DNA of 64,000 nt from Candidatus Hydrogenedentota bacterium (GTDB lineage: Bacteria; Hydrogenedentota; Hydrogenedentia; Hydrogenedentales; JAEUWI01), in NCBI GenBank assembly GCA_034669905.1, contig JAXMOL010000034.1:21716-85715 (forward strand), read 5' to 3'. A model generated the notes under the pieces. It worked only from the letters and a program-made list of their open reading frames with translations. It was not told where the DNA came from and ran no database searches. Shown here in pieces: positions 937-6,478 of this stretch. The translations under genes and the position numbers were made by a program. Numbering within the stretch: the stretch's first letter is position 1; each line of letters begins with the position of its first letter.

Positions 937-1328
937 GTCGTTCGGGGCGTGCCCCTACCCCTCGAATGGAAATGGGAAAATGCCTTCCTCCCTCTCGCCG
1001 TGGATCGTAGCCACTACGATTCACGGCTTTTTTTTGGAAAATTGGGGCGCAAGGTGGCTTGATCCCTCGGGATTTTCGGGACTTTAGGTCTTCGGTAACG
1101 TCGGCAAGACGTGAGAGATTGTGTGTCAAAATACGGGGTATTCCGGTTGAATTTGCTCGCAGATTTGCAGATTCTATCCCCAGATTTTCCACAGTCGGCC
1201 GATTTTTTCGCTTCGTTTAGGCATGTTGTAAGTGGTTGTAATTCGGTGGCTTGGGGAAGATATGACACAAATGTAAATTTTTTGTCATGCCTAAAAGTAG
1301 AAAAAATTGCACTTTTTTATTTTTTTTC

Positions 1329-1357
1329 TTGACGGGAGGATAGATTCATGGTATAAG
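1329..1357 (+). promoter_or_regulatory. Sigma70-type promoter for the small ORF at 1420
   Basis: TTGACG-17 bp-TATAAG with extended -10 TG and an AT-rich upstream tract. Confidence 0.75.
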
Positions 1358-1419
1358 CCGGGCAAGATTGAACGCGAAAACGAGTCATTAAACTCTCTCG
1401 AAAGGAGGTGATTGCTACT

Positions 1420-1557
1420 ATGAAACAATGCACGTTATGTAATGAGCACATTGAAGATGTCGACTTCGAATTTGGAGAAGCCGTTGACCTTGAAGGTGAG
1501 TGCTGGCATGCCGAGTGTTACTACGAATATTTCGGCGAGGTACTGGAAACGGTATAA
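1420..1557 (+). CDS. 45-aa acidic zinc-finger microprotein (CxxC-x22-HxxC), not in the ORF track
   Basis: MKQCTLCNEHIEDVDFEFGEAVDLEGECWHAECYYEYFGEVLETV; RBS AAAGGAGGTGA at 1401-1411; flanked by promoter and terminator. Confidence 0.8.
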   Translation: MKQCTLCNEHIEDVDFEFGEAVDLEGECWHAECYYEYFGEVLETV

Positions 1558-1585
1558 GTCGGCACATAGTATGGTCGTTTAGGTG

Positions 1586-1623
1586 CCTCGGAGGGGTATT
1601 GAATTCCCGTCCGAGGTTTTTTT
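1586..1623 (+). terminator. Rho-independent terminator
   Basis: CCTCGGAGGGG/CCCGTCCGAGG stem followed by a T7 run. Confidence 0.8.
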
Positions 1624-1875: not shown

Positions 1876-2931
1876 GTGCAACTTAAACGTTCCAAAAAAA
1901 CTGCTGACGTCGTTCTCCCCTTTGAACGCCCTCTTGTTGATATAGAAGAACAAATCGCCGCGGCCGAAACGGACGAAGCCCGTTCCGAGTTGATGGCCCA
2001 ACGGGATGCCCAACGGGAGGCGATCTTCGCGAATATCTCCCCGTGGGAACGTGTTCTCCTTGCCCGCCACCCCCAGCGTCCCCGAATGCGTGCCTTCGTT
2101 GAACACGTATTCGACGATTTCGTGGAGCTCCACGGTGACCGCGCCCTGGGTGACGATCCCGCGATGGTGACCGGTATTGCCCGTTTTCGTGGCCAGACGG
2201 TCTTCGTTGTAGGGCAGCAAAAGGGTGTCGACACCGATGAGAAGGTCCGGTGTAATTTCGGCATGGCCCATCCGGAAGGCTATCGAAAAGCACTGCGCAT
2301 CTATCGCATGGCCGAGCGTCTTGGCCATCCCATTATCACCATCGTGGATACGCCTGCGGCCCACCCCGGCATTGATGCCGAGGCGCACGGTCAGGGCTAC
2401 GCCATCGCCTACAACCTGCTGGAAGCGTTCAAAATCAATACGCCCATTCTCTCCATCATCCTCAGCGAAGGGGGAAGTGGCGGCGCGTTGGCGATTGCTG
2501 TCGGAGACCGCATCGCCATGTTTGAGAATGCCGTGTATGTGATTTGCCCACCCGAACGGTGCGCTGAAATCCTGTGGCGTGATGTGGAAAAGAAAGAAAT
2601 GGCCGCCTCTGCCCTGCGGGTCTCTGCGGCTGACCTCAAGGAATTGGGGGTCATTGACAGCATCCTCAAGGAACCCAATGGCGGCGCCCACCGCGATTTG
2701 GATGGTGCCGCAGCCTCTATGGCGTCGGAGATTGCCGACTTTCTGGATCAGGCAGCCCAGGGCGCTTGGAAGTTGTCCGACCGTCAGGCCCGGTTTCAAC
2801 GGATGGGTCAATGGCTCGAGTCCGCGCCGGAATTGCCTGCGGAAGAATCGGATGGACCCGCCGATACGGATGCCGACGGGGCCGAACCGGCCACCGAGGG
2901 GGATGCCGAAACCGCGAACGTCGCGGAGTAG
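1876..2931 (+). CDS. accA: Acetyl-CoA carboxylase carboxyltransferase subunit alpha
   Basis: ARHPQRP, ELHGDR, NFGMAHPEGYRKA, EGGSGGALA motifs; acidic C-terminal tail; GTG start. Confidence 0.93.
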   Translation: MQLKRSKKTADVVLPFERPLVDIEEQIAAAETDEARSELMAQRDAQREAIFANISPWERVLLARHPQRPRMRAFVEHVFDDFVELHGDRALGDDPAMVTGIARFRGQTVFVVGQQKGVDTDEKVRCNFGMAHPEGYRKALRIYRMAERLGHPIITIVDTPAAHPGIDAEAHGQGYAIAYNLLEAFKINTPILSIILSEGGSGGALAIAVGDRIAMFENAVYVICPPERCAEILWRDVEKKEMAASALRVSAADLKELGVIDSILKEPNGGAHRDLDGAAASMASEIADFLDQAAQGAWKLSDRQARFQRMGQWLESAPELPAEESDGPADTDADGAEPATEGDAETANVAE

Positions 2932-2933
2932 GG

Positions 2934-3242
2934 GTGAGTTCCCCCCCACTCGAATCCGTTCCCGACGGGGTGCTCCTGCGGGTGCGGGTCCAGCCCAAGG
3001 CCTCGCGCGACAGTGTCGTGGTCGAAGAGGGGGGACGTGTGAGGGTAGCGTTGACGGCGCCGCCGGTAGACGGCGCGGCCAACACGGCACTGATACGTTT
3101 CATGGCCCGCCATCTGGGCATAAAGCGTCGCCAGGTGAGTTTGAAATCCGGCGAGCGTAGCCGCGACAAATCGCTCCTTCTGAGCGAGTGTTCGGTAGTG
3201 CAGGTCGCCACGCGCCTCAAGATAGACCTGGCGCAGAAGTGA
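2934..3242 (+). CDS. DUF167/YggU family protein
   Basis: VRVQPKAS, APPVDGAAN, GERSRDK motifs; GTG start just after accA stop. Confidence 0.85.
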   Translation: MSSPPLESVPDGVLLRVRVQPKASRDSVVVEEGGRVRVALTAPPVDGAANTALIRFMARHLGIKRRQVSLKSGERSRDKSLLLSECSVVQVATRLKIDLAQK

Positions 3243-3324
3243 AGATGCTTTACAATCCCGACCAATGGGGTTGCGCCGTTTGAAACGAGGCATAAATCTG
3301 TAAAACTGTGAGAGGGTTCACGCA

Positions 3325-4164
3325 TTGTTACATGATCAGGTTTCTGAAGCCGCCGCCTATATCCGCGCTCAGGCATCCCTGGAGCCCCGGGTGGCCGTCG
3401 TATTGGGGACCGGACTCGGCGCCTTCGTTGAGCGGCTCACCGAGAGCACACGGTTGTCCTACGAGGGTATCCCCCACTTTCCGGCGGCCACCGTCGACTC
3501 CCATGCAGGGGAATTGGTCCTGGGCATGCTCGGCGACGTGCCCATCGTAGCCCTTTCCGGACGATTTCACTACTACGAGGGCTATAGTCTGCAGGAAGTC
3601 ACCTTTCCGGTTCGGGTGGCCAAGGCGCTGGGCGTCGATACCCTGGTGGTCTCGAATGCCGCGGGTGGACTGAATCCCCAATTCAAGGCCGGTGACCTGA
3701 TGTTGATTGCCGACCACATCAACTTTATCGGCGACAATCCCCTGATTGGGCCCAACGACGATGCCCTTGGTCCCCGTTTTCCCGACATGTGTGAGCCCTA
3801 TTCGGAAGCGCTATTGCGTCTGACCGAAGAAAAAGCCCTCGCCATGGGTATTAAGACACAGCGTGGCGTTTATCTCGCGTGCAGTGGTCCCTGTCTGGAG
3901 ACCCGGGCGGAATACCGGATGATGCGTCACATCGGCGCCGACGCGGTGGGTATGAGTACGGTGCCCGAAGTCATTGTGGCCGTCCATGCGGGCTTACGGG
4001 TGCTCGGCTTTTCCATTATCACGGATGAGTGTTTTCCCGATGCATTGGAACCCGTCAATATTGAAAAGATTGTCGCGACGGCCAATGGTGCCGAGCCGGT
4101 GCTGAGTGCCTTGGTGGACGGGGTGTTGCAGGCCCTGCCGCCGGTACCGGGAACGTCCGCATAG
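3325..4164 (+). CDS. punA: Purine-nucleoside phosphorylase (trimeric type)
   Basis: VLGTGLG, GRFHYYEG, SNAAGG, VGMSTVPE motifs. Confidence 0.92.
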   Translation: MLHDQVSEAAAYIRAQASLEPRVAVVLGTGLGAFVERLTESTRLSYEGIPHFPAATVDSHAGELVLGMLGDVPIVALSGRFHYYEGYSLQEVTFPVRVAKALGVDTLVVSNAAGGLNPQFKAGDLMLIADHINFIGDNPLIGPNDDALGPRFPDMCEPYSEALLRLTEEKALAMGIKTQRGVYLACSGPCLETRAEYRMMRHIGADAVGMSTVPEVIVAVHAGLRVLGFSIITDECFPDALEPVNIEKIVATANGAEPVLSALVDGVLQALPPVPGTSA

Positions 4165-4272
4165 CGAAATTGCCCCCGTTGTGTTAGACTTTTTCTCAGC
4201 GGCATTTGGGTACGTGGCAAGTTACGGGCTCCCGGGGGGCCGTGTGTGCGCATGATTAGGAGTTAGAGAGCA

Positions 4273-5313
4273 TTGATGTCGGAAAAACTTATTCGATCCA
4301 TATTCGTCTTTTCATGCCTGATAATGGGCGTGATCTGGGGCGGCTTTGCCCATGAAGTAGCCAATCCGGAGGGGACGGCGAGCAGTCCTCTGCCGTGGTA
4401 CGTCATTGGGGGATTCATCGGGGGAGCTTCTGGCTTTTCGGTGGCCCTCCTGTTGCGTTTTATCACCCAGGAAGTCTACGAAAAACTGGCGCCTGCGCTG
4501 GTGGCCATCGTCATCGGTATTCTTTTCGGCTATGCGATTGCCAACTGGCTGCTGCTCTGGGTTCCCGGTGCCAGTTACAATTTCAAACTCTATGTCATCG
4601 TTACCTTTGTGCTGGTGTTCGGCTTCATGGGTATCTTTCTCGGGCTTAAGTTTGGCTCGGCATGGCAGGCCCTCCTCTCTGCGGTGGAGCGAAACAAGGC
4701 CGGGGTAAACACCCTGAAGCTGGTGGACACGAGCGTAATTATCGATGGCCGGATTTCCGATATCTGTGAAAGCGGTTTTATCGAGGGTACGCTCCTGGTG
4801 CCCCGCTTTGTCTTGCTGGAACTCCAACACATCGCCGATTCCTCCGACGTGCTTCGCCGTGCGAAGGGCCGCCGTGGACTTGATATTCTCAAGGAACTGC
4901 AGCGGGAATCGTCCAAGGTGCTGGTCGAGGTTATCGAAGACGACCCCCAGGAAGTCCGCGAAGTTGACAGCAAATTGGTTCGTCTGGCCCAGAAATTTGG
5001 TGCCAAGATCCTCACCAATGATTTCAATCTCAACAAGGTTGCGCAGATCGAAGGCATTGTCGTGCTTAACATCAATGACCTCGCCAATGCCCTGAAGCCG
5101 GCAGTCCTTCCCGATGAACAGATGGAAGTGAAGATCATCAAGGAAGGCAAAGAGGCCAGTCAGGGCGTCGGCTATCTTGATGACGGCACCATGGTGGTCG
5201 TTGATGGCGGCCGGGTGCATATGGGCAAGATGGTGCAAGTGGTGGTGACCAGTGTGTTGCAAACCGCCGCCGGGCGCATGATCTTTACCCGATTTGACAA
5301 CGTCTTGTCGTGA
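4273..5313 (+). CDS. Membrane-anchored PIN/TRAM domain protein (YacL-like)
   Basis: Four TM segments, DTSVIIDGRI, LTNDFNLNKVA, GVGYLDDGTMVVV; conserved position upstream of ispD. Confidence 0.9.
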   Translation: MMSEKLIRSIFVFSCLIMGVIWGGFAHEVANPEGTASSPLPWYVIGGFIGGASGFSVALLLRFITQEVYEKLAPALVAIVIGILFGYAIANWLLLWVPGASYNFKLYVIVTFVLVFGFMGIFLGLKFGSAWQALLSAVERNKAGVNTLKLVDTSVIIDGRISDICESGFIEGTLLVPRFVLLELQHIADSSDVLRRAKGRRGLDILKELQRESSKVLVEVIEDDPQEVREVDSKLVRLAQKFGAKILTNDFNLNKVAQIEGIVVLNINDLANALKPAVLPDEQMEVKIIKEGKEASQGVGYLDDGTMVVVDGGRVHMGKMVQVVVTSVLQTAAGRMIFTRFDNVLS

Positions 5314-6005
5314 CACGTCAGGTCATCATACCGGCCGGTGGTATGGGGCAACGGTTGGGCGAATCACTTCCCAAGGCGTTGGTGCCGCTCTGTGGCGTTC
5401 CCCTGCTGCTTCGAACCTTGTCCGCCTTTCACCCCCTTGGTCTCGCTAAAACGGCGGTGGTGACCGTGCCTGCAGGGCACGAGTCCCCCATTGTTACCCT
5501 GCTCGAAGCCGCCTTTCCCGGCAACCAGATCACGCTGGTGCCTGGCGGCGTGGAGCGCCAGGACTCCGTGCGGAATGCGCTGGCGGCGTTGCGATCGGAT
5601 ACGGCGCTGGTGGCCATCCACGATGCCGCGCGGCCATTTGTGAGCGCTGCGGTGGTGGAGGCATCCTTCGAGGCCGCGGCTACCCATGGAGCCGCAACGG
5701 TAGCCGTTCCTGCCATCGACACGATCTTGGTGGGCGACGGCGAAGGCTTTCTGTCCGATACCCCGGACCGGAGCACGGTCTGGTGTTGCCAGACGCCCCA
5801 GACCTTTCAGGTGGCGGTTATCCGAGCAGCCCACGATACGGCCCGGAAAAAATCGTTCCAGGGGACCGATGATGCCACACTGGTACGGCGTTGTGGGCAC
5901 CCCGTGAAACTGGTTCCCGGCGATTTCACCAACCTGAAGGTAACTACCCCCACCGACATGACCATTGCAGAAACCTTTATAGAAAAGAAGCTGGTATGCG
6001 TATAG
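5310..6005 (+). CDS. ispD: 2-C-methyl-D-erythritol 4-phosphate cytidylyltransferase
   Basis: IPAGGMGQR, RQDSV, IHDAARP, QTPQ, TDDA, NLKVTTP. Confidence 0.93.
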   Translation: MTRQVIIPAGGMGQRLGESLPKALVPLCGVPLLLRTLSAFHPLGLAKTAVVTVPAGHESPIVTLLEAAFPGNQITLVPGGVERQDSVRNALAALRSDTALVAIHDAARPFVSAAVVEASFEAAATHGAATVAVPAIDTILVGDGEGFLSDTPDRSTVWCCQTPQTFQVAVIRAAHDTARKKSFQGTDDATLVRRCGHPVKLVPGDFTNLKVTTPTDMTIAETFIEKKLVCV

Positions 6006-6478
6006 GCCAAGGCTATGACTTGCATCGGTTGGAAGCCGGTTATCCCCTGATATTGGGCGGCATCACGGTGCCCCACGACAAGGGGATGGTGGGGCATTCC
6101 GATGCCGATGTGTTGTCCCATGCGATTACCGATGCCCTTCTGGGGGCGGTGGCCCTGGGGAATATTGGACAGCTCTTCCCGGATACGGATCCGGCCTACA
6201 AGGGGGCTGACAGTCTCGTGCTCCTGAAAGAGGCCTGGCGGCGTGTCCAATCCACGGGGTACGCCATCGTCAATATCGACAGTACCATCGTGGCCCAGCA
6301 GCCCAAGCTGAATCCCTATATCGATACGATTCGCCTGCGATTGGCTGAGACCCTGGAGATCGCGGTGGAACAGATTTCGGTCAAGGCCAAGACCAATGAA
6401 AAGGTCGGGCCCGAAGGCCGGGAAGAAGCCATCAGTGTGCAGGCCGTGGTGCTCCTGCAGGAATCACCGTTGCCCTGA
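5996..6478 (+). CDS. ispF: 2-C-methyl-D-erythritol 2,4-cyclodiphosphate synthase
   Basis: MRIGQGYDLH, GHSDADV, KAKTNE; start reassigned to ATG 5996, overlapping ispD. Confidence 0.95.
   Translation: MRIGQGYDLHRLEAGYPLILGGITVPHDKGMVGHSDADVLSHAITDALLGAVALGNIGQLFPDTDPAYKGADSLVLLKEAWRRVQSTGYAIVNIDSTIVAQQPKLNPYIDTIRLRLAETLEIAVEQISVKAKTNEKVGPEGREEAISVQAVVLLQESPLP

Follow-up and report, generated by a model that had tools for sequence, protein, structure and literature searches.

A 45-residue, strongly acidic protein, predicted to form a single zinc finger, is encoded by what appears to be its own transcription unit in a Candidatus Hydrogenedentota genome, and it represents a phylum-wide family whose promoter is near consensus and never carries a T at position −7. 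One-domain zinc-finger microproteins are already a known kind, as described in PMC6562870; the promoter is what is new here. We tentatively propose (probability about 0.3) that this acidic, putative treble-clef protein acts on the RNA polymerase holoenzyme, through either sigma-70 or core, with feedback through its own promoter. The anomaly at −7 is the most informative feature of the unit and had no place in the original prediction, which was made from the DNA letters alone. Searches of the literature on Hydrogenedentes, DUF8161, and treble-clef, LIM, and small proteins, which covered mostly open-access text, returned no description of the family, and supplements of small-protein catalogues may list it.

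The features of the locus are given below in coordinates of the window (the whole stretch of 64,000 nucleotides that was analyzed).

1313..1327, + strand: A/T tract 5' of the −35 element, UP-element-like, with a putative function
1329..1334, + strand: −35 element TTGACG, kept in orthologues, in contrast to the nearly random spacer (35% identity between pairs)
1349..1357, + strand: extended −10 (TG) followed by the −10 hexamer TATAAG, with G in place of T at −7 (1357) in the probable register
1401..1411, + strand: ribosome-binding site AAAGGAGGTGA, 8 nt before the ATG; GGAGGT/AGGTGA in 69/77 orthologues
1420..1557, + strand: ORF of 45 aa (ATG at 1420, TAA ending at 1557) for an acidic C2HC finger, predicted treble clef, with a helix at 31-38 and a tail ending in V/A
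1585..1623, + strand: intrinsic terminator, hairpin 1585-1617 plus T run (−21.6 kcal/mol, z −4.8)
1876..6478, + strand: usual downstream neighbors, namely, accA, DUF167/YggU, purine nucleoside phosphorylase, PIN-TRAM, ispD, and ispF

The promoter, ribosome-binding site, ORF, and terminator that the original prediction had described were all present as claimed. TTGACG and TATAAG (1352-1357) are separated by a 17-nt spacer that ends in TG-G, and the region from −45 to −37 is A/T rich in 71 orthologous promoters. Each flanking element also occurs above the level of control windows. A promoter-like site lies upstream in 56/77 unique orthologous loci (11/2098 control windows), a GGAGGT/AGGTGA site in 69/77 (28/2098), and a terminator-like hairpin downstream in 68/79 orthologous loci (24/344). 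A stock promoter scan, which requires T at the last −10 position, listed neither the finger-gene promoter nor its hairpin. The gene sits between an endonuclease/exonuclease/phosphatase gene, which has its own terminator, and accA, and the downstream genes (1876..6478) are predicted to fall outside its transcript. A 14-pair terminator hairpin 3' of the upstream gene (window 997-1035) insulates the finger-gene promoter. The 5' leader folds no better than shuffled sequences, and a riboswitch or other RNA family was rejected as a reading of the locus after five loci gave no Rfam match. Leaders vary in some lineages: the g17 members (L016, L018, L019) have an AT-rich leader of ~140 nt, along with a Ser/Thr-rich, partly basic C-terminal tail of 20 to 25 aa, and another clade (L050-L058) has a leader of ~170 nt and the −10 variant TACATA. 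The ORF was previously described as missed, which holds at most for the ORF track used at the time; the exact protein is already present in NCBI, JGI, Logan, and ENA gene calls, and orthologues carry the label "hypothetical protein" in databases.

Contigs assembled from RNA libraries of four studies span 1373-1596, 1396-1588, 1399-1609, and 1404-1585. All of these lie inside the predicted transcript, and their 3' ends, at 1585-1609, fall in the predicted terminator region; together they give a weak hint of a discrete finger-gene transcript. From a run with no recorded type, one contig spans 1260 to 2267, past the predicted transcript. The flanking genes are largely uncovered in the same RNA runs, which carries no weight as evidence. 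The runs were chosen for containing the stretch, and assembled contigs give no expression level; a ranking of finger-gene expression from them was thus rejected as invalid. The earlier description of the protein as highly expressed is not supported by these contigs, and its promoter is without the −7 T to which such promoters normally owe their strength.

By profile search, 101/135 genomes of the phylum, identified as Ca. Hydrogenedentota from named records, were found to carry the finger gene, in a single copy each, the own genome included, and with no internal stops. Among good-quality genomes, 69/86 carry it, while it was not found in 17/86. Other searches gave a similar range: a single-protein query recovered 33/41 relatives, a protein search gave 248 matches among 326 candidates, and one pattern run against GTDB contigs returned 73 loci, most labeled Ca. 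Hydrogenedentota. Five GTDB loci were checked, three of them with other taxon labels, and all match genomes of the same order or closer. The deepest sampled branch (G041) encodes a 42-aa variant (P0156) in a purD-purE context.

Homologues that retain the C/H ligands, to which the original prediction had looked for confirmation, are abundant. Across 112 aligned sequences, C4, C7, W29, H30, and C33 are invariant, and N8, E9, E27, E32, E36, and Y37 are conserved in kind at 94 to 100%; the C-terminal residue is V/A in 75/79 finger proteins. Of eight same-genus orthologues, seven show dN/dS of 0-0.035 (four of these being near-identical to each other), and the eighth is identical. Over 322 wider pairs, chosen for pS of 0.05-0.6, the median dN/dS is 0.30. 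Codon-position entropy is highest at the third position (1.39 versus 0.61 and 0.54). By this pattern of substitution, the ORF is a real gene under purifying selection. A noncoding RNA or spurious ORF is very improbable given the within-genus dN/dS, the variable third positions, the lack of stops within any match, and the absence of Rfam matches in the five loci. Within the subclade of the window, residue 28 (1501-1503) is Cys, a fifth cysteine beside W29-H30, at a position where 87% of the family has Tyr/Phe.

A broad profile at E ≤ 1 still failed to recover the gene from 34/135 genomes, 10 of which gave weak matches inside long frames. In 16 of the 34 finger-less genomes, accA was recovered, and no finger ORF was present upstream of it within up to 1.1 kb (only 274 nt in one case). 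Some lineages have likely lost the gene. Where at least 1.5 kb was available, accA is the first downstream gene in 46/67 loci, and 16 loci have none of this usual set. Farther downstream, YggU is present in 47 loci, purine nucleoside phosphorylase in 45, and PIN-TRAM in 42. The genes upstream differ among loci.

A library of 1.84 billion proteins gave 36 matches at E ≤ 0.001 (HMMER, all lengths), and a metagenome scan for divergent members gave 16 true members and one false. Divergent members without a taxon label are P0142, P0143/P0160, P0145/P0162, P0148, P0149, P0151, and P0154. The false relative (L167:931-1527), a zinc-ribbon protein of 199 aa whose end is FHA-like, has nothing but its first residues in common with the family. 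P0155 and P0226 (398 and 375 aa) are unrelated long proteins within the 90% clusters of the microprotein and are likely clustering artifacts. Unnamed look-alike clusters from the Atlas, some of them viral or from Acidobacteriota, serve as leads only. None of 31 candidates found in IMG/VR with one pattern was confirmed as a relative, and no relative was present among 50,697 phage records.

The protein has the pattern C4-x2-C7-x22-H30-x2-C33 with WHAECY, and it contains 13 Asp and Glu residues versus one Lys. The earlier description of a very acidic, stand-alone, single-finger peptide holds for the family as a whole, in which surface acidity is conserved and the median net charge is −12; the same data support the earlier view that this acidity suits protein binding better than DNA binding. 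An AlphaFold model from 112 sequences (pLDDT 88.6) consists of a knuckle, a short helix (13-17), a hairpin (21-30), a helix that carries the second ligand pair (31-38), and a loose tail, with modeled strands at 2-4, 21-24, and 27-30. The model has the features of a treble-clef zinc finger, the predicted fold, in which C4, C7, H30, and C33 probably bind one Zn(II).

A LIM domain comprises two tandem zinc fingers with eight ligands in about 55 to 60 aa, and its first finger follows CxxC-x16-23-HxxC with WH. The proposed likeness to this first finger stands as to pattern and fold: the family shares CxxC...WHxxC[YF], the C7-H30 spacer is 22 in 119/121 proteins and 23 in 2/121, and several LIM structures superimpose on the model at an rmsd of 0.8-2 Å over 31-34 residues. 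A second finger is missing, however: the 112-sequence consensus has no Cys beyond C33, and no member reaches the LIM cutoff (PF00412, 22.9 bits). Although 21/28 members match weakly (best E 0.00026), P0001 has no LIM match at E ≤ 1 and short members score 13.8-17.8 bits; alignments of distant members are confined to positions 1-28 of 58, and the spacer of the finger protein forms the extra helix at 13-17. The suggested relation to PARP-type fingers (PF00645) is limited to a common ligand order, as only 7/28 members match weakly (best E 0.021) and none reaches the zf-PARP cutoff. The PARP finger is a DNA-binding domain of about 80 aa, roughly twice the length of the finger protein, which has 45 aa and a net charge of −12. 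The CCHC finger of Pcf11 (PF21936) likewise shares the ligand order and heads the Foldseek matches (E 0.3); 22/28 members match it weakly, and the Pcf11_C score of 13.9 bits falls short of the cutoff of 26.7. Unlike the finger protein, both Pcf11 and PARP fingers are domains of large eukaryotic proteins, and every match to them is below cutoff.

Structural comparison with LIM and PARP fingers, a check proposed in the original prediction, returned a treble clef similar to the N-terminal half of a LIM domain but did not single out LIM. The matches listed by Foldseek and a broad structural search, all of treble-clef types, include LIM first fingers, Pcf11, RING, PHD, PARP, L24e, the ClpX zinc-binding domain, and CsfB. 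LIM ties with Pcf11, RING, PHD, PARP, ClpX, and CsfB, and neither search gave a match at E ≤ 0.001 or Z ≥ 5 (best Z, 3.5). No family was found at cutoff in Pfam, NCBIfam, or PHROGs, and no match was found among solved-structure sequences at E < 0.01. DUF8161_C (PF26495) was an Atlas lead at 0.91, with this family on 20 to 22% of cluster members. As modeled, the protein is best regarded as a half-LIM look-alike that does not belong to the LIM proteins, and its fold does not by itself reveal a function. Four longer proteins (P0130, P0150, P0152, and P0153; 151-420 aa) contain three to nine tandem single CxxC...WHxxC[YF] fingers, i.e., LIM first-finger repeats without the second; three of the four exceed the Pfam LIM cutoff, and they come from short metagenome contigs.

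The site of CsfB and the ligand set of YacG each consist of four cysteines, whereas the finger protein is C2HC. Among characterized systems, CsfB/Gin of Bacillus subtilis is similarly a small stand-alone treble-clef zinc-finger regulator, which binds sigma (PMC5890618). Its structure (5n7y) aligns with the finger model at Z 2.6, with 12% identity and an rmsd of 2.1 over 33 residues, a result that many other structures equal; CsfB differs in being a homodimer that acts on sporulation sigmas, and no such family occurs among the Pfam or NCBIfam matches of the finger protein. YacG (PF03884), described in PMC4083091 and PMC2490753, is also a small stand-alone treble clef with a C-terminal tail, and it acts on a DNA-handling enzyme, gyrase, by occluding its DNA site; the finger protein has no match to this family. 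Single-finger microproteins of fewer than 70 aa in Haloferax volcanii are likewise dispensable in good conditions (PMC6562870). They are archaeal, and the likeness is one of size, single-finger form, and dispensability. Stand-alone treble clefs with known jobs (YacG and CsfB) control core machines; thus, an unnamed phylum-wide family of this kind is a good candidate regulator.

The −7 base in 81 distinct orthologous promoters, in the register suggested by sequence, is G in 54, A in 25, C in 2, and T in 0, with the caveat that these promoters are phylogenetically related and do not represent 81 independent events. In one survey, 8/79 loci had no called promoter. The absence of −7T extends to the deepest branch (G041), in a different gene context. 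The remainder of the element comes nearer to consensus than is average for the genome: among the 71 promoters whose spacer is 17 nt, positions −10 to −8 are T (73%), A (99%), and A (80%). The spacer of the same promoters, at 35% identity between pairs, is saturated. Any base but T beside saturated neighbors argues for selection against T rather than for an operator or simple inheritance.

The rest of the own genome behaves differently. With the last −10 base left free, T occurs in 48/62 strict sites, and the only G is that of the finger gene. At intergenic sites, T was counted 243 times versus 39 expected, whereas A, C, and G (38, 26, and 32 versus 36, 43, and 40 expected) are at or below expectation; the loss of −7T thus appears to be gene specific and not a property of a regulon. 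Other promoter sites in the loci of relatives have T in 10/14 cases. A non-T regulon of another sigma factor was rejected for lack of a genome-wide non-T excess, and a sigma-54 reading (GG-N10-GC) was rejected because G occurs at −2 in only 35% of promoters.

In published work, −7T is present in 90 to 99% of promoters outside alphaproteobacteria, and its lack creates dependence on CarD (PMC7703639, PMC8407463). Both CarD and negative supercoiling are required by a −7T-less rRNA promoter, and at the promoter of its own gene CarD is a repressor or an activator depending on topology (PMC12976309). CarD/CdnL and the −7T-less alphaproteobacterial promoters thus resemble the present case in the missing −7T, a self-regulating regulator, and an ispD-ispF neighborhood (PMC7703639, PMC12976309, PMC2919716). 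In contrast to those systems, −7T loss here is confined to one gene of a −7T-keeping genome, and CarD has no sequence or fold relation to the finger protein (P0001 has no match to RID or CarD_C). CarD_C was found in 0/135 genomes of the phylum and in 5/14 controls; the sole RID of the own genome lies in a 1095-aa, Mfd-sized frame. CarD was therefore rejected as an activator of the finger-gene promoter, as the family was not found in phylum genomes. Published studies of promoters without −7T apparently do not treat a gene-specific loss where CarD was not found. Against the RNA polymerase reading, −7T is kept elsewhere in the genome, and a CarD substitute would thus meet no general need in the phylum. 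An acidic protein would also not be expected to reproduce the DNA contact of CarD.

The finger-gene promoter probably recruits polymerase well, by virtue of its A/T tract, TTGAC, TG, and TATAA, but opens poorly. Phylum-wide selection against T at one position is most easily explained if the product acts on promoter opening; likewise, if such a sensor is kept on the finger gene alone, the simplest reason would be that the product acts on the same step. Under the proposed mechanism, the finger protein would dock on a basic surface of the RNA polymerase holoenzyme (sigma-70 or core) through a face of near-invariant nonligand residues (L6, N8, E9, I11, E27, W29, E32, E36, Y37, and F38). Once docked, it may tune promoter opening in either direction. 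Its own −7T-less promoter would serve as a feedback sensor of open-complex conditions, with an output that would follow anything that changes open-complex formation. The V/A C terminus of the protein may, by analogy, act as a degradation tag. The promoter offers a rare built-in test, in which one base change (−7 G to T) and a 45-residue peptide would suffice to probe what the gene senses and whether it is self-regulated.

By analogy, the RNA polymerase reading is favored by the characterized stand-alone treble clefs CsfB and YacG, which act on such machines. The downstream block, which ends in ispD-ispF, also echoes cdnL neighborhoods, since ispD-ispF often adjoin carD/cdnL elsewhere (PMC2919716); against this link, ispD lies five genes downstream, past a terminator. 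The absence of the finger gene from 17/86 good-quality genomes indicates that it is dispensable, which CarD, in several species, is not (PMC8407463). Complex prediction of the finger protein with RpoD regions 1.2-4 scored 0.00 in both runs, in which the fold of the partner was uncertain, and weighs neither for nor against the interaction. Two DksA/TraR-type genes are also present. The same promoter logic would suit a gyrase inhibitor or merely a growth-regulated gene. A broader claim is possible but rather doubtful: RNA polymerase or gyrase would be the target of a new class of regulator, a lone LIM-type half-domain with feedback via a −7T-less promoter, in a phylum where neither CarD nor YacG was found.

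The protein could instead be an adaptor or nucleic acid mimic for another partner (HU/IHF, Clp protease, the ribosome, or an RNA-binding protein), with the promoter tying the gene to growth state. The acidic-aromatic surface, the C-terminal V/A in 75/79 proteins, and the ClpX zinc-binding domain among the tied fold matches are consistent with such a role. We consider it unlikely, as the neighborhood holds no link to such genes and this reading alone does not explain the selection against −7T.

A gyrase inhibitor resembling YacG is a somewhat less likely reading: the finger and acidic tail would block the DNA groove of gyrase, and a poorly opening promoter would yield more inhibitor when DNA is oversupercoiled. 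Precedents are YacG itself, a treble clef that blocks the DNA site of gyrase (PMC4083091), and the dependence of −7T-less promoters on supercoiling (PMC12976309), and dispensability is expected of a tuner. YacG was found in 0/135 genomes of the phylum (the own genome and 134 relatives) and in 2/14 controls, and the own genome has one GyrA/ParC-type gene and one GyrB-type gene, the latter encoding a long, 806-aa protein (L150, G000:C42). Nevertheless, the lack of a sequence match to PF03884, the absence of YacG from the fold matches listed, the different ligand set, and the lack of linkage to coenzyme A genes make this role rather improbable.

Smaller still are the odds of a zinc buffer or a metal/redox sensor without a protein target. 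The protein is small and acidic, with four predicted ligands and a strong ribosome-binding site, as a buffer might be. It has a single metal site, however, and nonligand surface residues conserved at 94 to 100% exceed the needs of a store; no metal transport genes were seen as neighbors at the loci.

An equally low probability is assigned to a CsfB-like anti-sigma factor, made in growth and lost under stress, that would target the RpoS-like group 2 sigma factor. Besides the CsfB precedent (PMC5890618), this idea draws on the distribution of that sigma factor (276 aa, below family cutoffs), which is present in 122/135 genomes, with 7-25 kb separating it from the finger gene in five genomes of four genera. 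Most finger-less genomes still keep the group 2 sigma, however, and its co-occurrence with the finger gene was set aside as uninformative; in two single-contig genomes, the two genes are 1 to 2 Mb apart. More sigma residues are relaxed in finger-less genomes (7 versus 1 of 585 in RpoD and 3 versus 0 of 274 in the second sigma), but these changes are confounded by clade, as they follow a single one. CsfB is dimeric, and a charge of −12 would disfavor a dimer. The group 2 sigma gene usually adjoins a phosphoribosyltransferase-like gene (L139:790-1620; L140, L141, L142, L144-145, and L146). Separately, tandem pairs of RpoD-like genes occur in three genomes: L188/L196 (G059), L190/L197 (G038), and L222 (G058).
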